From: a virus
Taxonomy: Duplodnaviria > Caudoviricetes
Virus record (IMG/VR): IMGVR_UViG_3300037484_000435
Coordinates: 352,001-416,000 of that record
Direction: 5' to 3' (one strand)
DNA: 64,000 bases
Shown here: one piece after another, positions 21,729-33,902 of the stretch
How the letters are laid out: each line of letters opens with the position of its first letter
How positions within the stretch are numbered: position 1 is the stretch's first letter
Notes under the pieces: model-generated
The model's database searches: none
What the model was told of the DNA's origin: nothing
Seen by the model: only the letters and a program-made list of their open reading frames with translations
Translations under genes and position numbers: made by a program

Positions 21729-22766
21729 TTACTCCTCTAGCTCCATTTGAGCGTAAATCAAACAACCATTCGCGACACTTCGAAGCGGATCTGGATTGGT
21801 TGCTCTACGAATATCACCTATCTCAAATGGAAAATTCTTTGACATAAGTGCAAAGGACATCTTTTCTAGATAGCCCTCTGGTAAACAAGTTCCACCCGCT
21901 ACTACGATAGGAATCTTCGACTCAAATCTGGGCATTTGTGTTAAATCTGTAAATTTCTTTTCCAAAGCATCTACCACATAATTTATAAGTGCATCATAAT
22001 AAATAGAAATTGCTTTCTGTAGTTTATCCTGCGGATTTAACAAATTTATACCAGATTCTTTTTCTGCCTGCACAATTGTTTCTGAAATTTTTTGTTGTTT
22101 AGCAACTGATTTATCTATGTAATCCCCACCACTAGCAATACTAAAAGAGATAAGGTTCTCTCCCATGTGGGTCAAAGAAAGATTGTGCATCCCGGCACCC
22201 GCTGATATTACGATTCCCGTGAGGTCATCATCCAAGAGTTCCGAATAGGCCAGTGCCATGGACTCCAACAACGGCATAGGTTTATAACCTAAACCCGTTA
22301 AAATCTCTGCCATACGGTTCTTGTGGTAGATTATATCGAAGTCTTCATCTACAGGATCCGCAGGGAATGTATACACACAAAGTTCTCCTGCTTTAGAGGC
22401 CCTGCCAACAACTGACTCTATCAACTTAGAAAGCATGCCGAATGTGTTTGCTTCACTATCGCTAAGTACGCCCTTTTTAAGGGGACGCTCCACAGGCTGC
22501 AACCTAATGTTCGCTAGGGAAATTGCGTGTTCTCCTACTATGTAAAATCGGCCCTCTTCTTTTAAAGTAAACGCTCCCTTCTGTTTAAGCATCTGCTCTA
22601 TCATTTTGGTGTTTGCTTTACCCTGTGGAATCATAACGAAGAAGGCATCCCGCTCCGATCTAAACTCCACCTGTCCGTCCTCTTTCATCCGAGCAACTTG
22701 CAAGAATGATGTTCCGACGTCTAGACCCACTCCCAACTTATAATTATTCTCCATAATCTCCTCCAA
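21729..22766 (-). CDS. Actin-like ATPase (MreB/ParM/MamK superfamily)
   Basis: Phosphate1 GLDVGTS, connect1 ESMALA, phosphate2 ISAGAGMHN, GGDYID, adenosine VAGGTCL, connect2 SVANGC. Confidence 0.85.
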   Translation of the reverse strand: MEEIMENNYKLGVGLDVGTSFLQVARMKEDGQVEFRSERDAFFVMIPQGKANTKMIEQMLKQKGAFTLKEEGRFYIVGEHAISLANIRLQPVERPLKKGVLSDSEANTFGMLSKLIESVVGRASKAGELCVYTFPADPVDEDFDIIYHKNRMAEILTGLGYKPMPLLESMALAYSELLDDDLTGIVISAGAGMHNLSLTHMGENLISFSIASGGDYIDKSVAKQQKISETIVQAEKESGINLLNPQDKLQKAISIYYDALINYVVDALEKKFTDLTQMPRFESKIPIVVAGGTCLPEGYLEKMSFALMSKNFPFEIGDIRRATNPDPLRSVANGCLIYAQMELEE

Positions 22767-25183: not shown

Positions 25184-26076
25184 TTATTTAATCCTGCCAT
25201 TACGTTTAATTCTCCTTTTATACACTTTATTAATCGATTCAAATCCAACATTATTTGGGGAAATTTTAAAGAAAATGATTCCGCCAACCTAGATGTAAAT
25301 ACTATGACTCTATCTAGCCCATAATGTTCCATACGTTTTCCACATGCGATTTGTCTACGTTGAAACCAAGTAGGGTTTTTAGTTAAACACATCGTATCTC
25401 GGACCCTAAGTAATGTAAACACCAAGCCCCAGAGTACTGCCGAACTCAATCTTGGGTTCTCATTTAACTTGTCTAAAAACTCAGCGTACTCCCCATCTAT
25501 GAAATGGTTTACAATAACAGTCTCTTCCGACACGGAAAGCCTCCCACATATCAGGGCAAAATCCTGATAAGATAGGGACTGTACATAAGCTTGGTCTAAA
25601 AAAGACAACATTTTTGCCGTGTTAGTTATGGCCACCATATCATAACCACATGACACACATATAAACTTTGTGTAAACTGTTGGTAAATTAACACTTAACT
25701 GGGTCAAATATTGCTGACAAAACGCTTCTATTTGATTTGGAAAAAAGTCACTACAAATAATTTCACAAAATCCTAGAGATTTATATTTCTGTGTAATCTT
25801 TTTTGATGAAATCTTAATTACAAAATTAAGACCCTCTTTGGGTTCAACCTTATTACCAAATATGTAAGCAATAAGTTTGGGGCCAAATATTGTATAATTA
25901 CCATAAACTTTTAAATCAGATGATTTGGTCACATTTACAGCTTCTGTGACGCCCCAACCTTGTATCAATTTATCAATTACCAGCCCGCGGACAAAAGTAT
26001 TCTCTCCACTGAGGAAAACCTTGTTAATATTAGGTAACTCTTTTTGTAGGAACTCGGACGCATACATTACATACAA
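25180..26076 (-). CDS. DNA polymerase III delta-like clamp-loader subunit
   Basis: Adjacent to dnaX; VFLSGENTF degenerate AAA+ start; size typical of HolA-like proteins. Confidence 0.55.
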   Translation of the reverse strand: MYVMYASEFLQKELPNINKVFLSGENTFVRGLVIDKLIQGWGVTEAVNVTKSSDLKVYGNYTIFGPKLIAYIFGNKVEPKEGLNFVIKISSKKITQKYKSLGFCEIICSDFFPNQIEAFCQQYLTQLSVNLPTVYTKFICVSCGYDMVAITNTAKMLSFLDQAYVQSLSYQDFALICGRLSVSEETVIVNHFIDGEYAEFLDKLNENPRLSSAVLWGLVFTLLRVRDTMCLTKNPTWFQRRQIACGKRMEHYGLDRVIVFTSRLAESFSLKFPQIMLDLNRLIKCIKGELNVMAGLNK

Positions 26077-27161
26077 ATCTCCAAAGCAATCAATTGAAGC
26101 ATAAATTTTTTGTTATTACTAGAATTAAACTGGTCCGTGCGTCGGGCTAAGACGTCAGAAATATATAGAATACGTGGAATACCTATAGATTTGAAACACG
26201 CTATATACTGGTCTATGTAAAGAGGTTGGCCACCCGAGGAGACCAAAAGCAGATTAGACACAGCATCAACTATACCATCATTAAACAAAGTGTCAGGATC
26301 GACCCCCGACTCTAATATCTCCTGTAAAACCGCCCATAAACCTTTAGAATCCTTATTAGCCACACAATCCAAAATAGCAAAGGCCTTAGCTGAGTCCATC
26401 GAGCCGATAGAGAATAAGGCTGACTCTTGATTCCACCCCTTTTCCTTGCAATAAGGTATCACCTTTTCCAATAAGGTTAGGGCGTCCCTCATAGAATTCT
26501 TAGAAGCAAACGCAACTACCGCTGCCGCTTCCTTTATATCTTTGACCTTAATACCCTTCTCTTTAATTTGTTTTTTTATTATCTCAATAATATAGTCGGC
26601 TATAACTCCAGTCGGAATGCTCTTTAAATCCAAGGACACCAATCTAGATTTTATAGTGTCAGGGATTTTTGCTTTGTTCGTTGTACAAAAAATCCAAACT
26701 AAATGGGAAGGGGGCTCCTCTAAGACCTTCAGAAGGGCGTCCCACGAGGATTGTGACTTACCGAGACCTTGGGCCTCATCAACAATAAAAACCTTGTAGT
26801 TGCCCGCTATAGGCGTTAGCATCGCATGGTCCATTAACTTACGAATATCCTCGATGTTTCCATTTGTGGACCCACTCACCTCCATAATGTCTGGGTGATG
26901 CCCCGCAAGAGACATCTTACAACTCTCACACTCATTACAAGGTTCATAACCGTTCTGCCTATTCTGACAGTCCAACGTGCGGGCGAAAATACGGGCTAAG
27001 GTAGTTTTACCTAAACCTCTAACCCCAGATAGAAGTATACCCGCAGGTACACGATTAGCAGTAAGCATGCTCTTAAGAACTAAAGTTACTTGATCGTTGT
27101 ATATAACGTCTTCGAATTTAATCGGCCTTAATTGTGTTGCTAGATTGAGATACCGTTCCAT
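26067..27161 (-). CDS. dnaX: DNA polymerase III gamma/tau clamp-loader subunit
   Basis: RPIKFEDV, GVRGLGKTT, PCNECESC zinc module, VFIVDEA, LLKVLEEPP, TIKSR. Confidence 0.9.
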   Translation of the reverse strand: MERYLNLATQLRPIKFEDVIYNDQVTLVLKSMLTANRVPAGILLSGVRGLGKTTLARIFARTLDCQNRQNGYEPCNECESCKMSLAGHHPDIMEVSGSTNGNIEDIRKLMDHAMLTPIAGNYKVFIVDEAQGLGKSQSSWDALLKVLEEPPSHLVWIFCTTNKAKIPDTIKSRLVSLDLKSIPTGVIADYIIEIIKKQIKEKGIKVKDIKEAAAVVAFASKNSMRDALTLLEKVIPYCKEKGWNQESALFSIGSMDSAKAFAILDCVANKDSKGLWAVLQEILESGVDPDTLFNDGIVDAVSNLLLVSSGGQPLYIDQYIACFKSIGIPRILYISDVLARRTDQFNSSNNKKFMLQLIALEICM

Positions 27162-27531
27162 TTACATTCCAGTCCGTAAAGATATAGGTTGGCTTACCTT
27201 GCTTCATCGCAAGGTCGATTGTGTGTTTGGTTCCTTTAGATTGACCATCCCAAAAAGCTGCTATCATATCAGAGTAATCTACTATCTCTATATTCCTTTT
27301 ATATCCAGCAGACCTATCGTAAACACCGTTTACTCTCCATTTAGCAGGAAATACTTTCCAGTCGTGACCCTCTTCTTTAGCATAATCTATTGCTAGAGAA
27401 TCTGCACCCTGAGCCCCGCCAGAAACAATGGTACACTTCCACACCCAATAGGAACGGAGTAAATCATCTAATAGCCTTTTCATATAGGGATAGTCATTAA
27501 ACGTTCGCGATCCCACCACTCCTAATTTCAT
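27118..27531 (-). CDS. SLOG-family (DUF2493/YspA-like) protein
   Basis: GVVGSRTF, VSGGAQGAD, AGYKRN, AFWDGQSKGT. Confidence 0.8.
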   Translation of the reverse strand: MKLGVVGSRTFNDYPYMKRLLDDLLRSYWVWKCTIVSGGAQGADSLAIDYAKEEGHDWKVFPAKWRVNGVYDRSAGYKRNIEIVDYSDMIAAFWDGQSKGTKHTIDLAMKQGKPTYIFTDWNVNGTVSQSSNTIKAD

Positions 27532-28544
27532 TATGTTGGTCCCCAACCGCGTTTCTTAAGATATTCAACTGCCTTTTCCATATCACCTTTAGACTTCATC
27601 AAGGCTTCCCTACAATATATTTTGGGCTCACCAGTCCTATCCCTCAGGTCCTTTATCTTTGCTGTAGTAGCATAATCGTATATATCAATATCTTTGAGTT
27701 CTGGTAATTTTAATTCAGAAAAATATTTGTCATGGGCTTCACAACCGGCCTTAGATAACTGGTCTCGAAGTTTTTCGAAACCCTCTCTTGTCTTTTCTAA
27801 GGATTCTTTCATACCAACAACAAGTTCCTCAGTAGATGGCGGATTATTTACAAGATCGGCTAAAGAGAGATCCCCTGTATCCTTAGGTTTATCCCCATAA
27901 GGTCTGCTATCCCCTATATTCTCAAATTCACTGTTGAAATTTCGATAAAGAGCTTTATGGTCTTTGGCCACGTGGAACTTTTTGACATAGCCCTCTGGTA
28001 TGTCTTCACGTAACTCTACGTCTGCCCAACCATTGGGCAAAGGGTAAGCGTAATAGGGATAAGATTTGTTAGACCCACGAACGTAGGCCACGTTGATAGG
28101 AAGTCCCATCTGGTAAGCTAGACGACATCTGTGTTGCCCATCATTGATGATAAGTTTTATGTTTCCCCTACAATCAACGTACTCTTCAATTACAGGAGGG
28201 AGAATATCTATAGTCTTAATCTCAGCCACTTTACTGATATAAGGTTTGCCACCTGCTTCTATTGCAGTCTCAGTTGTATTAGAATAGTCAACTTTCAAGT
28301 AGCCATTCAATTGTAGAATATCCCACCCGAACTCGTTCATAATGTCCCACCGCAATTGTTCAATCTTCTTCAACTCACTAATAAGACAGTAACGCTGGGT
28401 TGGTGCCAAAACGGCGGGGTCAAAAGTTTCAATACTAATAAATGAATTTAGATAGGGCTGGGTGTTCCCGCCCCGTAGTTTGATATGTTTGAGTTTTTCA
28501 CACAACTCACCAGCAGATTTTGCTGAAATGTCAGAGAAGTCCAT
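27531..28544 (-). CDS. ParB/sulfiredoxin-like domain protein with C-terminal EF-Ts N-terminal (UBA-like) domain
   Basis: LPPVIEE...INDGQHRC core; C-terminal TAKIKDLRDRTGEPKIYCREALMKSKGDMEKAVEYLKKRG matches the EF-Ts N-terminal pattern (VKELRERTGAGMMDCKKAL...GD.E.A...LRK.G). Confidence 0.7.
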   Translation of the reverse strand: MDFSDISAKSAGELCEKLKHIKLRGGNTQPYLNSFISIETFDPAVLAPTQRYCLISELKKIEQLRWDIMNEFGWDILQLNGYLKVDYSNTTETAIEAGGKPYISKVAEIKTIDILPPVIEEYVDCRGNIKLIINDGQHRCRLAYQMGLPINVAYVRGSNKSYPYYAYPLPNGWADVELREDIPEGYVKKFHVAKDHKALYRNFNSEFENIGDSRPYGDKPKDTGDLSLADLVNNPPSTEELVVGMKESLEKTREGFEKLRDQLSKAGCEAHDKYFSELKLPELKDIDIYDYATTAKIKDLRDRTGEPKIYCREALMKSKGDMEKAVEYLKKRGWGPT

Positions 28545-28578
28545 TCCTTTTTTCCTTCCTTTCCTTGTTTAGTAAAGA

Positions 28579-28618
28579 TACTAGTGGGAAACTCCCCTAA
28601 GGGGTACCACCACTAGTA
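28579..28618. terminator. Intergenic stem-loop (possible terminator)
   Basis: TACTAGTGG...CCACTAGTA 9-bp stem enclosing CCCC-taa-GGGG. Confidence 0.45.
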
Positions 28619-28648
28619 ATAAATTTGAGAGATTAGCTTTTATTATCT

Positions 28649-28831
28649 TTACTTACCCAGTAGTATAAAACCACCAGATACCATAGCAAGAATAGCCAAA
28701 CCCATATAGACTAACTGTGTTGCGTAAACTGAGAGATGTAGTTGCCCGCTAACCAAAAACAAGGCACCACCAACAATCAACAAAATCGCAAGCAGTATTA
28801 GTCCAATATTTTTAATGATATCAATGTTCAT
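28649..28831 (-). CDS. Small two-TM membrane protein
   Basis: 60 aa, two hydrophobic segments, ends GFILLGK. Confidence 0.6.
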   Translation of the reverse strand: MNIDIIKNIGLILLAILLIVGGALFLVSGQLHLSVYATQLVYMGLAILAMVSGGFILLGK

Positions 28832-28844
28832 CCTTTGTTACCTC

Positions 28845-28901
28845 TTATATTAGCCGTAAAATAAGAATTACGACCAATACTATCACAAGTATTTCTAACA
28901 T
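28845..28901 (-). CDS. 18-aa hydrophobic peptide MLEILVIVLVVILILRLI
   Basis: Hand-translated; fills the gap between two small membrane genes. Confidence 0.4.
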   Translation of the reverse strand: MLEILVIVLVVILILRLI

Positions 28902-28911
28902 ATTTGCACCA

Positions 28912-29070
28912 CTATCTACCTATCAGGATTAAAATTCCTGCAACAAGTGCAACTATTCCCATCACAACATGCAGCACAGGATGCCCAACAGCAAAAACTG
29001 TACAAATACCTGGTATTACTATTAGCCAAATTGCTAATAACAAAAGTCCCCAATTTCCTTGAATAGCCAT
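28912..29070 (-). CDS. Small two-TM membrane protein
   Basis: MAIQGNWGLLLLAIWLIV...GILILIGR; AGGAG SD; likely paralog of 28649..28831. Confidence 0.6.
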   Translation of the reverse strand: MAIQGNWGLLLLAIWLIVIPGICTVFAVGHPVLHVVMGIVALVAGILILIGR

Positions 29071-29177
29071 TATCTTTCTCCTAAAGTCTATCAAGACACA
29101 CCAAGAGATCCCTAAACATTTCTGTTCCTATTATAGGAAAAAGGCTAGATCATTATTACGATTTTTTCTTGTTGGAA

Positions 29178-29993
29178 CTACCTATACTGCGACCTTGGTC
29201 TCCTCGGTTGTCGAGAAAAAAGTCCTAATTCTTTTCTTGTTGCATTTAAATAACTACACGACACACCTAATCTTCTGGCCACCAAATCCCAAGTTCCTTC
29301 CTCGTTATATAAATTAACAATCTCATCAGACGATACTCTTTGTGAAAGTCTTTCGGGCCTAGGAGGTATAGATATAATGGTTTTATATAAATTGTATTTT
29401 CTTGGCAAATAAAAATTACAATTCCCATATAGGAGATGTAATATTCTTTGAACAATAGGGTTTCCAGAAAACTCAATAATGTAATTCTCCCCATTTCGTC
29501 TGGGTGATTTTCTAACATCTCTGTCTGAGCCAACAAACTTGGCGAAGCCTCTCACCAAAGGTTTAGTATTTCTAAAATTAACACACCAGTGGTTACTACG
29601 AGTGCTATGACGATAAAAAATAGAGCCATCTCCGTCAAACAACCCTCTGTAGTAATGCACTTTTTGTTCCTTAGGAACCAGATTACAAGGTTCGAGATTA
29701 TAAGTTTTATTATGAACTAAGCCCAACTCTCTCAATCTAGTAGACATCATGGGAGATCTGAAAGCTAAGGAACAAGTGTGTGCTTTACCTCTAATCCTAT
29801 CACTAATTTTATGGTTGGATTTAATTGTCTCTTTAAAAAGTTCAAGCCATTCGATATCTTTTATAGATATTTCCATACCAATGGAGTTCTTTTGAGATAC
29901 AAAACCATCAGACGAAAGAACACCAAGCCAATAGGCTGGGCCCTCATAATTCAAATTATTAAAGTAATCATGGGTAAGAGTGTATTCTTTCAT
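29178..29993 (-). CDS. LAGLIDADG homing endonuclease with C-terminal HTH, directly downstream of tmRNA
   Basis: YWLGVLSSDG and YYRGLFDGDG; C-terminal EIVNLYNEEGTWDLVARRLGVS; probable start MKEY at 29993. Confidence 0.9.
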   Translation of the reverse strand: MKEYTLTHDYFNNLNYEGPAYWLGVLSSDGFVSQKNSIGMEISIKDIEWLELFKETIKSNHKISDRIRGKAHTCSLAFRSPMMSTRLRELGLVHNKTYNLEPCNLVPKEQKVHYYRGLFDGDGSIFYRHSTRSNHWCVNFRNTKPLVRGFAKFVGSDRDVRKSPRRNGENYIIEFSGNPIVQRILHLLYGNCNFYLPRKYNLYKTIISIPPRPERLSQRVSSDEIVNLYNEEGTWDLVARRLGVSCSYLNATRKELGLFSRQPRRPRSQYR

Positions 29994-30028
29994 ATAAAAA
30001 TAAATTCTCCAACAATTTAATGTACTTG

Positions 30029-30616
30029 TGGAGCTGGGCGGTACTGCCCCGCCGTGTAGTCTGGCTTTCAATTATGAGTCTCTAGGTATCGTAGCCCGTT
30101 TATACTCAAAGCAGAGTTTTCTAACTCTTCGGGACCCAGCGGTTAGTGACTGATAGCGAATTGGTTTCCCGCACGGTGGCGGTTGGCCTTCTCATCCCTA
30201 TCCCAGTTTCAGTTGCTGGAATACCTACGACCGTAGGATTTAAATTGGGGGCGTATTGGGGGTGTTTTAATTAAACTAACCCTGCTAGTGCTAGGTTCGG
30301 ATTGGCTACCAACATCTCCCTTTTTCTACGCCGCCTCCACCAGTTGGTGTTTAACCTCTCCAACAAGAGGGCACGCGTAACCAAAGTTACGTGCTCCACC
30401 CAGCTATTCTGTTGCAAAGTCAACTGGGGAACTCCACAAGTTCTATTAAACGCTCGCGAAAGTCAAGCTGTCGCGTTTGTCTTGCTCCAAGTAGGATAGA
30501 ACTGTATCGAAAATTGAATTTTCGGCATTTATTGTTTCGCATCATTTTACTGGATGATACACCAGGATACCAACTTATAACCTACTTTCACCACCTATCG
30601 ATCCTAGTTCAGCCCC
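30029..30616 (-). ncRNA. ssrA: tmRNA, unusually long (588 nt)
   Basis: 5' GGGGCTGAACTAGGATCGA and 3' GGCGG-GGCAGTA-CCGCC-CAGCTCC-A form an Ala acceptor stem with G3:U70; pk1 CTGG/CCAG with GTATCAT/ATGATGC; resume context ATAAAT-GCC; GGTATC/GATACC P2 pairing. Confidence 0.92.
30443..30526 (-). other. tmRNA tag reading frame AENSIFDTVLSYLEQDKRDSLTFASV followed by TAA TAG
   Basis: GCC resume codon just after pk1 and AATAAAT; double stop. Confidence 0.8.
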
Positions 30617-30656
30617 ATGGTGGTAGGAGGACTCTATTGAATCCCCCTTTCTTTCA

Positions 30657-31091
30657 CTATCTTAAGAATCTTTTATCTTGTCCCATCAAATACTTATCTA
30701 ATAGGACTAGAAGGTTCTCTAAAATATGGCATAATTCTTTAGCACCCTGCTCCCTTTTCTGATTACGTACAACGTAATTGGCACCATTATCGTAGTATTC
30801 AAAAATATCCTCGTAACCATTACCAGAAGCAATAACTACTACAGGGAGTAAAGACGCCATACGGTTTGACTTTATATTAGCCAAAACCGTGTTAATAAGT
30901 TTGGGAGGCGATTTCCCAACTAAGATAATGCAAGCATCATAAGATTTATCCTGTAATTTGGATGTTATATTTACGGTTTGCATCTCTAAGTTAGACTCCA
31001 ATACACCAGCTTTAGTCAATTGAACTATCCAAGCGTTCGCTTCCGCGGAGTCCTCACTAAAAATTAAAAATTTCCTGTCAAAATGTTCCAT
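30657..31091 (-). CDS. Degenerate response-regulator receiver-like protein
   Basis: PVVVIASG...DIFEYYDNGANYVV resembles stand-alone receivers; phospho-Asp position not evident. Confidence 0.5.
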   Translation of the reverse strand: MEHFDRKFLIFSEDSAEANAWIVQLTKAGVLESNLEMQTVNITSKLQDKSYDACIILVGKSPPKLINTVLANIKSNRMASLLPVVVIASGNGYEDIFEYYDNGANYVVRNQKREQGAKELCHILENLLVLLDKYLMGQDKRFLR

Positions 31092-31103
31092 AGTTCTCCT
31101 AAA

Positions 31104-31481
31104 TTACACGTGACCGGGAAGTTCTTCTCCGGGGGCAACATGGGCCATCTCTAACGTAATTATATTAGGACGTTTTCCTTTAACAAAGTTTGAGATGTTC
31201 AAGATAGGAATAGGCATCAATGGAAAAAATTTACCATTCTGCTCCTTCACCATTTCCTCCATAGCTCTCGCACCCTTTTTATTGGAAACTACTTCCATTA
31301 CGTAGTCATCATTAACAATGATTTCCCATATATTGGCCCGCTTATCTCTGACAAAGTCAGATAGTGCTTCTAAAGGAATATCCTCTAAAACCAATTCCTC
31401 AACCTCAGCCTCATTCATCAAATCTAGGATTTTCTGAGCATGTTCCTTAGTTGTCTTTATTTCTGCTTTAAAATATTCCAT
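31104..31481 (-). CDS. Hypothetical acidic protein
   Basis: Probable start MEYFK at 31481, coupled to the HU stop. Confidence 0.55.
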   Translation of the reverse strand: MEYFKAEIKTTKEHAQKILDLMNEAEVEELVLEDIPLEALSDFVRDKRANIWEIIVNDDYVMEVVSNKKGARAMEEMVKEQNGKFFPLMPIPILNISNFVKGKRPNIITLEMAHVAPGEELPGHV

Positions 31482-31482
31482 C

Positions 31483-31764
31483 TTATTTAACCGCGTCCTT
31501 AAGCAATCCCGAAGGTATGAACTTAGGGTACTTAGTAGCCTCCTTATTGATTTTCTTTTGGGTTCTTGGCTCAACGTATACCCTCGCTTTCTTCTCCACA
31601 ACATCAAAAGCACCAAAACCCCTTACGCTAATCCTCTGGCCAGCCTTTAGGGCCTGCATGATGTCATCAAATACGTTACGTATAATTGCTTCAGCATTCT
31701 TTTTTGTTACCTTTTCATCCTTAAACTGTGCGACACAGCTTTCCACTAGATACTGAAAATTCAT
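31483..31764 (-). CDS. HU/IHF-family DNA-binding protein
   Basis: ISVRGFGAFDVVEKKARVYVEPRTQKKI...PKFIPSGLLKDAV; probable start 31764. Confidence 0.9.
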   Translation of the reverse strand: MNFQYLVESCVAQFKDEKVTKKNAEAIIRNVFDDIMQALKAGQRISVRGFGAFDVVEKKARVYVEPRTQKKINKEATKYPKFIPSGLLKDAVK

Positions 31765-31792
31765 TCTTTCATCTCCTCTTACTTTCCTGTGT

Positions 31793-31826
31793 CTATATAA
31801 TATATAGTACACAAACTTATGTCTTT
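31793..31826 (-). promoter_or_regulatory. Conserved-spacer promoter motif, copy A (upstream of HU)
   Basis: AAGACA-TAAG-TTTGTGTACTA-TA-TATTAT on the minus strand. Confidence 0.6.
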
Positions 31827-32338
31827 AAAAAATCAGACCATTCGGGTATCCGGTATTTAATATTTACTACAGTTTGTAAATATTCAAACACCTCCATCCG
31901 TTTGGGCAATCCTCTCAATAGCCCCATCCCAGCTTCTGAAGGTGTCCTGTCTCCCTTCTTCGAATTACAGTCAACACAAGCTGTAACTAGGTTGTCCCAA
32001 CTAAAACGACCCCCTCGGGAACGAGGAGTACAGTGATCCAACGTTAGATTTGACGCAGTTCCAGCCTTACCACAGTATTGACATTTATAATGGTCTCTCA
32101 ATAAAATGTTTCTACGGGATAATTTCACCTGAAAACGCAAACTAACTTTTCCCAACAGCCTAAGGACTGCGGGTACTTTAAACGCACGGTTGACCGTACG
32201 TACTACTCTGTCAGCATACTCTAGAACTACATCCACTTTTTCATTGAACATGAGTCTGAACGTTTGTTTTAATGATAATATTTTTAGTGGGGTGTAGTCA
32301 TGTGACAACAAAAGACATGGGTGGGTTGAAGTAAACAT
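31817..32338 (-). CDS. HNH endonuclease (McrA-like)
   Basis: RDHYKCQYCG...LTLDHCTPRSRGG..SWDNLVTACVDCNSKKG. Confidence 0.9.
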   Translation of the reverse strand: MFTSTHPCLLLSHDYTPLKILSLKQTFRLMFNEKVDVVLEYADRVVRTVNRAFKVPAVLRLLGKVSLRFQVKLSRRNILLRDHYKCQYCGKAGTASNLTLDHCTPRSRGGRFSWDNLVTACVDCNSKKGDRTPSEAGMGLLRGLPKRMEVFEYLQTVVNIKYRIPEWSDFLKT

Positions 32339-32632
32339 CTACTTACCTCCGATTTTAATCTCCTCTGGCTCCTTCTTATCTTTGGATTTCTCAGTTTTTG
32401 CTACTGCCTTTAATGCTTCAGCAACAGCATGTTTAACAATCTCTGACACTTCATCCGCAGTATAAGTTTTCTGCGGTGATTCTCCTTTCTGTCTCTGCTT
32501 CAGACTACTCCACGCAGGTTGCCCAGGACCATCTTGCCTAGAGGGCCTATCATAGGGCTCCCCCGTGTCGTTTGGCCTGAAAGCAAAAAACGAACTGTCA
32601 GCCTTTGCATCCTTAATGTCATTCTTCGCCAT
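32339..32632 (-). CDS. Hypothetical protein
   Basis: ORF track, GGAG SD. Confidence 0.55.
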   Translation of the reverse strand: MAKNDIKDAKADSSFFAFRPNDTGEPYDRPSRQDGPGQPAWSSLKQRQKGESPQKTYTADEVSEIVKHAVAEALKAVAKTEKSKDKKEPEEIKIGGK

Positions 32633-32960
32633 AATATACTCCTTTTAATATAGCTACTATGTCCTTCTCATGGACCATTCTAAATTCAATGGATTTCCCA
32701 TTTACATCATCTAGAAACAAATCCGTACCAGCTTTCCAGTTGAAGATTACTACATCTCCAATGTGAACTTCATGGGGCATAAATAAACCTTCTCGAACAT
32801 AACCTTGACTTACCGCTTCCACTACGCCTTGAATTGGCATGTTCTTAACATTATCTGGGATAATTATTCCCCCAGGGGACTGCTTCGAACTTCCAATAAT
32901 CCTTATTAGGACCCCACCATTCAACGGAACGGGATTCACTGATAATGAAAAATCGCCCAT
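32619..32960 (-). CDS. groES: Co-chaperonin GroES (Cpn10)
   Basis: VPLNGGVLI, PGGIIIPD mobile loop, GVVEAVSQG, GDVVIF, HEKDIVAIL. Confidence 0.88.
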   Translation of the reverse strand: MGDFSLSVNPVPLNGGVLIRIIGSSKQSPGGIIIPDNVKNMPIQGVVEAVSQGYVREGLFMPHEVHIGDVVIFNWKAGTDLFLDDVNGKSIEFRMVHEKDIVAILKGVYYGEE

Positions 32961-32996
32961 TGTTACCTCCTGTACTAAGTAAGTTAATTCTTTGTG

Positions 32997-33902
32997 TTAC
33001 TTACTATATAATCTCTCATATCCTACGGCTGATACTGGTAACCCATTGAATTCTAAAAAGGTTTCAACTTCTCCAGATTTGAGGTTGACAACATTAACAC
33101 CTCCAGATGACGCAACGAAAGCATGTCCCCAGTCAATACGGCTGTCATACTCCACAGCCACGGATAAGAGGTTTTTAGTTCCTGATATGACATTGTAATA
33201 ATTAACGAGGTCACTTCCATTTCTCACATCCAATCCAGATGTTGTAGCTAAGAATACTGTATCAATACCTTGATAAGTGTTCACGAACATTTTATTCAGT
33301 TGGGTGTCAGTATAAGGTATGGTCACATCCCAAGATGAAAAATCCACAGGCTCACCATATTTAATTCTTAACTGATTGCTTTCCGCAAGATAGAGAGTCG
33401 GACCAGGGGAAATGAATACATCTCTACCCTCAGTTGTTAGACACGTGAGATAATCTTCTGTTCCCGACTTTTTCCAGTACAGGCCAGAAGAAGTCAAAAT
33501 ACCCAAGTAGGAATCAAGGGAATCCACCGCAATAATGTTGTCAGAAGGCAATCCGCTGAGCGTAGTATAGGATTGGTAAGCTTGAGAAGATAGATTGACT
33601 GGTGACATTATAGGGCACTGTGCCTGTTTTACTTTATCCCAAGAAAGTGTGTAAGTACCGTTATTTAGGGTGCCCGCAATAACGTCACCATCAAATACAC
33701 AGGAACTAGTGACTTTGGAAGGTGTCATAAAAAAACTACATTCAGGAAAGATACCATCTAAGTGTAGATAAGGATTTATAATAGTTAGGCCCAACTCGGC
33801 CCCGCACAGGTATCTAGGGGGATAATCCACATTATGATACCATCTGATGTGGCTCACCTCACCAACTGCTAAACCAAGTGCTTTCCAGAACAGAAGTAAC
33901 AT
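32997..33902 (-). CDS. Hypothetical protein with beta-propeller-like repeats
   Basis: LPSDNIIAV, LATTSGL and FVASSGGV resemble ligand-binding propeller repeats. Confidence 0.5.
   Translation of the reverse strand: MLLLFWKALGLAVGEVSHIRWYHNVDYPPRYLCGAELGLTIINPYLHLDGIFPECSFFMTPSKVTSSCVFDGDVIAGTLNNGTYTLSWDKVKQAQCPIMSPVNLSSQAYQSYTTLSGLPSDNIIAVDSLDSYLGILTSSGLYWKKSGTEDYLTCLTTEGRDVFISPGPTLYLAESNQLRIKYGEPVDFSSWDVTIPYTDTQLNKMFVNTYQGIDTVFLATTSGLDVRNGSDLVNYYNVISGTKNLLSVAVEYDSRIDWGHAFVASSGGVNVVNLKSGEVETFLEFNGLPVSAVGYERLYSK

Follow-up and report, generated by a model that had tools for sequence, protein, structure and literature searches.

The locus and the fusion gene

The window analysed here is a 64,000-nucleotide stretch of a 545,322-bp single-contig virus record that carries 40 tRNA genes. 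On its minus strand lies a gene in which a ParB-CE domain is followed by a linker and by a short tail resembling the N-terminal domain of elongation factor Ts (EF-Ts). The features discussed below are as follows.

27531..28544, minus strand: fusion ORF (P0001), made up of ParB-CE domain, mosaic linker and EF-Ts-N-like tail; 337 aa, model mean pLDDT 89
27900..28544, minus strand: ParB-CE domain, residues 1-215 (PF24392), of Srx/ParB-like fold
28128..28142, minus strand: DGQHR motif, residues 135-139, which aligns with the phosphate-binding Box II (GxxR) of ParB/Srx-fold proteins
27669..27899, minus strand: linker, residues 216-292, delimited by the AlphaFold model and block comparison
27546..27668, minus strand: three-helix module derived from the EF-Ts N-terminal domain, residues 293-333, by sequence and structure match
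27118..27531, minus strand: SLOG (YAcAr) gene, whose probable ATG overlaps the fusion stop by one base (TAATG)
29178-30071, minus strand: LAGLIDADG-like ORF; the earliest start open to it already falls within the 3' end of the tmRNA-like gene
30029-30616, minus strand: tmRNA-like gene, 588 nt, found upstream of ParB-CE across the clade
21729-22766, minus strand: volactin (actin-like; PF25216, E 2e-67), kept in the clade gene run

In related phages the gene run leads from Cpn10, HNH, HU, two small genes and the tmRNA-like RNA to ParB-CE, and continues with SLOG, clamp-loader genes, methionine aminopeptidase and volactin; SLOG is the usual downstream neighbour in the clade and is missing from some members. 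Copies of the tmRNA-like gene that are 72-95% identical lie upstream of ParB-CE in loci L001, L008 and L009. The gene was missed by ARAGORN at default settings and by Rfam, which was empty over 26000-33000, and relaxed ARAGORN output was mostly noise. In L001 a gene of similar size to the LAGLIDADG-like ORF, with a faint LAGLIDADG match, lies on the opposite flank of ParB-CE and separates it from SLOG. We found no EF-Tu or other translational GTPase, full EF-Ts, ThyA or SmpB in the phage genome, promoters and terminators were no more frequent than chance predicts, and the stretch was found in no RNA run.

The fusion is genuine

An earlier sequence-only reading had described a single frame holding both an INDGQHR motif and an EF-Ts-like C-terminal segment, and we find both in the one open frame 27531-28544 (minus strand), whose AlphaFold model (mean pLDDT 89) shows two confidently modelled domains, one at residues 1-215 and one of three helices at about 291-331, joined by a linker. 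That reading had named an assembly artefact among the things that would refute it. A 2,082-bp Logan contig, made by a second assembler from the probable source run (a sediment metagenome) and probably from the same reads, is identical to 27000-28535 with zero differences and spans the junction. The proposed search for the architecture in other phages returned five further fusion proteins (P0002, P0003, P0013, P0025 and P0041) deriving from three other assemblies; P0002, P0003 and P0025, together with the split pair P0004/P0060, come from different contigs of one JGI sample. The two parts do occur as separate genes in one relative, as an assembly or read-through artefact would have it, but the fusion homologues and the error-free contig refute this explanation in practice and leave it next to no probability.

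The N-terminal ParB-CE domain

Residues 13-177 match Pfam PF24392, the 'ParB-like catalytic effector domain' (ParB-CE), over the whole model (positions 1-147 of 147; E 1.7e-34, 119 bits against a cut-off of 23), the conserved DGxHR site being common to both, and an Atlas ParB-CE cluster has the same fold as the fusion N-domain (TM 0.88 by target). Nicastro et al. 2023 is reportedly the defining paper for ParB-CE. Foldseek matched the model to Srx, ParB, SerK and SbnI with probability up to 0.99. Similar to Srx, SerK, SbnI, Noc and ParB, the fusion N-domain has the fold and the GxxR phosphate-binding motif, although its identity to them is 10-15% and it lacks the Srx cysteine and the HTH and clamp domains. 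The catalytic cysteine of sulfiredoxin sits in a GCHR motif; here the motif is GQHR, with Q137 at that position, and in many relatives it is GMHR, which rules out a sulfiredoxin. A canonical ParB partition protein is likewise ruled out, as neither family profiles nor the model show an HTH or a C-terminal clamp dimerisation domain in the fusion protein and parA is absent among the flanking genes scanned. The ParB/Srx-type call of the earlier reading therefore stands for the fold and is narrowed to ParB-CE within it.

An alignment of 52 homologues shows no variation at D135, G136, H138, R139 or about a dozen further positions (among them Q50, Y52, E120, Y164, Y165, K188, K189, R201 and R214), so the nucleotide-phosphate site looks intact. 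In the ParB/Srx fold, for which Box II (GxxR, phosphate-binding) has been defined, NTP specificity is predictable neither from sequence nor by AlphaFold3 (PMC12704722), and gene context is what points to a substrate. The closest cellular ParB-CE sequences (34-42% identity) belong to Desulfobacterota, Peptococcaceae, Nitrospirota and other anaerobes, which would fit a sediment host and does not pin that host down. Of 80 bacterial ParB-CE loci, 67 have a dCMP deaminase no more than 4 kb away, 23 have a HAD phosphatase, and 13 carry a thymidylate-synthase-like DUF4346 fusion. Because these bacterial operons centre on dCMP deaminase, the substrate is probably a pyrimidine deoxynucleotide, and by analogy ParB-CE is a probable pyrimidine-nucleotide enzyme. 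The deaminase link also occurs at two viral ParB-CE loci. In the viral records L099, L101 and L102, ParB-CE has deaminase and/or thymidylate-synthase-like and HAD neighbours.

Compared with the usual ParB-CE, the fusion protein has a 122-residue C-terminal extension (the median tail is 7 residues in 176 loci) and its gene stands in the tmRNA/SLOG/clamp-loader run, not by dCMP deaminase, HAD or thymidylate-synthase-like genes. It is flanked by SLOG, DnaX-like and small membrane genes, and the locus is no operon of the deaminase/thymidylate-synthase-like/HAD type; a deaminase-family gene and ThyX are present in the phage genome, more than 200 kb away. Having left the deaminase operon, ParB-CE may have changed its substrate in the phage clade. 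The GenBank phage collection gave zero ParB-CE homologues and matched the tail only by host tsf-like sequences, and PHROGs gave nothing beyond weak unnamed families.

The tail descends from EF-Ts

TIGR00116 matches the tail at model positions 5-45 of 293 (E 1.5e-6, 28 bits against a cut-off of 104), and the best PDB sequence match of the tail is E. coli EF-Ts (E 1.6e-5). When the tail family profile was run against the PDB, EF-Ts scored E 8e-16 and the best non-EF-Ts UBA 3e-4, so that the generic UBA domain, which the earlier reading had offered as a way to overturn its EF-Ts call, is not what we find. In a library of 1.84 billion proteins the top tail matches outside the clade were almost all EF-Ts or EF-Ts fragments. 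The tail superimposes on the EF-Ts structure with an rmsd of 0.4-0.7 Å over 41 residues at 41% identity; however, structure-only Z scores are a near tie (7.6 for EF-Ts, 5.5-6.9 for other UBAs), and because structure alone barely tells EF-Ts from other UBAs the assignment rests on sequence. The Pfam EF-Ts_N score of 19-24 bits falls under the gathering cut-off of 33, which marks the tail as a diverged copy. Judged on these matches, the tail descends from the N-domain of bacterial EF-Ts and is not a generic UBA.

Similar to the EF-Ts N-domain (PDB 1EFU chain B, 7VMX; PF25025), the tail keeps K9, R12, T15, G16 and C22, and also A25, L26, G31, D32 and A36. It differs from EF-Ts in sitting at a C-terminus, in having PKIY for GMMD, in scoring below the family cut-offs and in lacking the core domain and the TDFV exchange motif. 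A full elongation factor Ts is ruled out by the last of these, and the absence of the core excludes nucleotide-exchange activity.

EF-Tu-contact residues

Tail residues K298, R301 and R312 correspond to EF-Ts K9, R12 and K23, the last with a conservative change from K to R. The R12 equivalent is present in 8/8 clade tails and position 9 is K or R in all eight; these exposed EF-Tu-contact residues (Arg and Lys) are kept in every tail while pairwise identity goes down to 30%. Purifying selection acts on the tail: pN is 0.17-0.32, while pS has reached saturation (0.77-0.87). The EF-Ts patch G18-M19-M20-D21, on the other hand, is P-K-I-Y in the P0001 tail and variable in all eight, whereas 110 true EF-Ts domains have G in 100%, M in 95%, M in 96% and D in 90% at positions 18-21. 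The P0001 tail is among the most diverged, agreeing with 18 of 37 consensus positions as against at least 23 in the 110 true domains. Mutagenesis of E. coli EF-Ts by Zhang in 1998 reportedly found that M19 and M20 matter for binding to EF-Tu. Natural EF-Ts tolerates change at positions 20-21, where the M. tuberculosis factor has L and A. Among mutants of the latter, L21A and K24A do not figure with those that broke the complex (PMC9529903).

The N-domain of EF-Ts contacts EF-Tu residues around 114 and 144-155, and binding cannot do without M. tuberculosis R13 (R12 in E. coli), which touches P114 and E155 of EF-Tu (PMC9529903). Two of the three indispensable residues of M. tuberculosis EF-Ts belong to the core domain (PMC9529903), and with that core missing the affinity of the tail should be low. 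From these correspondences docking of the tail on EF-Tu is plausible and would probably be weak. Modelled as a complex with E. coli EF-Tu, the tail alignment scored 0.00, which speaks neither for nor against docking.

An accessory and mobile tail

Six of 45 phage-clade ParB-CE orthologues carry the tail, 'tail-less' being judged by protein length, so that some short contigs may cut a tail off (e.g. P0016); the downstream gene was checked for P0007, P0008, P0020, P0030 and loci L015-L018 and L095-L102. In P0020 and P0030, at the same syntenic position, the tail is absent and the next core gene follows directly, and in P0006 and P0007 the linker is kept and the EF-Ts module absent. P0004 and P0060 are the ParB-CE domain and the tail as adjacent genes, and P0077 is a stand-alone tail gene of 144 aa that has a ribosome-binding site of its own and, upstream, an in-frame stop. 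On the ParB-CE tree the proteins with a tail fall into more than one clade (at least 3 changes; a single clade is rejected by the AU test, p 2e-121; P0041 was omitted from the careful tree as a long branch). Between the close kin P0001 and P0002, which share 96% identity in ParB-CE and 76% in the tail, the tail diverges faster than the enzyme. The tail has also been swapped between ParB-CE domains: P0002 and P0041 share 40% in ParB-CE and 95% in the tail. P0041 (L001:8001-9086, on a 647-kb contig) occupies the same slot with a ParB-CE about 40% identical to the clade orthologues and a near-identical tail, an apparent replacement, by sequence comparison, of the catalytic domain in place.

In the AlphaFold model the linker is a disordered stretch, a long helix (238-275) and a second disordered stretch. 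It is a patchwork of short blocks, different subsets of which occur in different relatives, and P0025 joins the two domains by a short, unrelated linker. The tail is thus an accessory, mobile module. Five other viral ParB-CE records (three of them incomplete, searched with no positive control) gave no tail match, and a shared-word search for shorter tail-only proteins gave none at a sensitivity low enough to miss P0077.

EF-Ts N-domains also occur in unrelated phages, where the same module ends proteins of 94-104 aa (L003:2845-3159, L004:2854-3138 and L005:528-812), and Atlas holds viral clusters of about 50 aa that resemble it, which we take as a lead only. These small proteins and clusters share with the fusion the C-terminal position of the module and the absence of an EF-Ts core; they differ in that the N-terminal parts of the L003-L005 proteins are short and unrelated, while the carrier in the fusion is a conserved enzyme domain. 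We know of no small phage protein with an isolated EF-Ts N-domain that has been experimentally characterised. The ParB-CE fusion is the sole enzyme-fused form of a phage EF-Ts N-domain seen in our analysis. The L003-L005 domains retain G-M-M/L. Seven further proteins (P0074, P0076, P0085, P0088, P0089, P0091 and P0095) lack an EF-Ts core and consist of, or contain, EF-Ts-N-like repeats in tandem, two to five per protein.

What the fusion may do

We tentatively favour, as possible rather than established, a nucleotide-pool enzyme that carries a weak EF-Tu-docking tag, the two parts being largely independent. ParB-CE is a core gene of this clade, whose members are very large phages, and here it carries an accessory C-terminal module. 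Its enzyme domain would bind and hydrolyse, or phospho-transfer, a pyrimidine (deoxy)nucleotide, for example dCTP/dCDP or dUTP, and to judge from the bacterial operons it could feed or guard the dCMP to dUMP to dTMP route for phage DNA synthesis. The tail would use R301, K298 and R312 for weak docking on the EF-Tu of the host, at its helix-D face, filling the EF-Ts site without catalysing nucleotide exchange, and the fusion would serve to carry and express the tag from a conserved operon. Because the tail is optional and swappable, the enzyme is probably not aimed at, or acting on, EF-Tu. Against this account, the GMMD patch is lost and the P0001 tail highly diverged; two of the three indispensable EF-Ts residues lie in the missing core, so that affinity should be low; ParB-CE lies outside the deaminase operon in the phage clade, so that its substrate may differ; and that the same enzyme was fused more than once could mean real coupling.

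In a doubtful yet serious alternative, the tail is EF-Ts-derived and has lost EF-Tu binding in this lineage. It would ride on the ParB-CE gene and survive because it is a small, stable set of helices that binds some other partner, or because it deceives a defence sensor that reads the EF-Ts surface. The replacement of GMMD, its variability in eight tails, the proline at the invariant G18 in P0001, the faster divergence of the tail than of the enzyme in close kin, and a phage without its own EF-Tu to co-evolve with would all fit such a loss. The EF-Tu-contact Arg and Lys, however, are kept in all tails even at 30% identity, and the natural variation of M. tuberculosis EF-Ts at positions 20-21, together with its L21A and K24A mutants (PMC9529903), also speaks against such a loss.

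The earlier reading had gone further and proposed an EF-Tu-docking nucleotide enzyme that might modify, sequester or shield EF-Tu. Its domains are there, but the step to an action on EF-Tu is weakened by mostly tail-less orthologues and a pyrimidine gene context. The Lit site on EF-Tu lies near residue 59. The type IV Thoeris caspase cleaves EF-Tu at R45/R59 (10.1101/2024.10.24.620036), and because the N-domain site lies away from the cleavage sites at 45-59, and would leave that region uncovered, direct shielding of EF-Tu by the tail is not expected. That the tail aims ParB-CE at EF-Tu for modification, nucleotide turnover or shielding from defence proteases and toxins nevertheless has points in its favour: the domains are fused in at least three ParB-CE lineages and adjacent in a fourth genome, P0025 fuses them through an unrelated linker, defence systems are known to target EF-Tu (10.1101/2024.10.24.620036), the clade has a tmRNA-like gene immediately upstream of ParB-CE and the phage has 40 tRNA genes, and ParB-fold relatives include phosphotransferases (Srx, SerK). 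Since most orthologues are tail-less with an equally conserved active site, and the family context is pyrimidine nucleotides and not translation, we consider this unlikely. Equally improbable, to our minds, is the joint claim that the EF-Ts N-domain is a portable phage EF-Tu-docking tag coupling ParB-CE, and hence nucleotide pools, to translation elongation, with ParB-CE regulated by, or acting at, EF-Tu during infection. Least probable of these functional readings is a DNA-positioning CTPase switch working with volactin, the tail being an interaction tag: volactin does lie 4.8 kb downstream, in the same conserved run in all long-enough clade loci, but the missing HTH and clamp dimerisation domains and the nucleotide-metabolism operons of bacterial orthologues make it very unlikely.

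Novelty and a second candidate module

The architecture is new and its parts both belong to known families. Our literature search, to which the defining paper of ParB-CE was external, found no paper on a ParB-CE/EF-Ts-N fusion, nothing relevant on ParB-CE, on DUF4346 with thymidylate synthase or on phage EF-Ts mimics, and a tested function for neither ParB-CE nor a phage-borne EF-Ts N-domain. If the tail binds EF-Tu, it would be a compact mimic giving phages access to the most abundant translation factor of the host; if it does not, the fusion would be no more than the usual shuffling of domains at a phage locus that varies. The clade offers a natural series of fused, split, stand-alone, tail-less and swapped forms in which this is cheap to test.

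Outside the window, the same phage encodes a 187-aa protein with a ribosomal L7/L12 C-terminal domain (L014:1123-1686, minus strand; genome 461462-462025), matched by PF00542 at E 6.5e-7 and 30 bits, above the cut-off. The L12 C-terminal domain also contacts EF-Tu and EF-G, and by analogy this protein may be a second elongation-factor-docking module in the phage.
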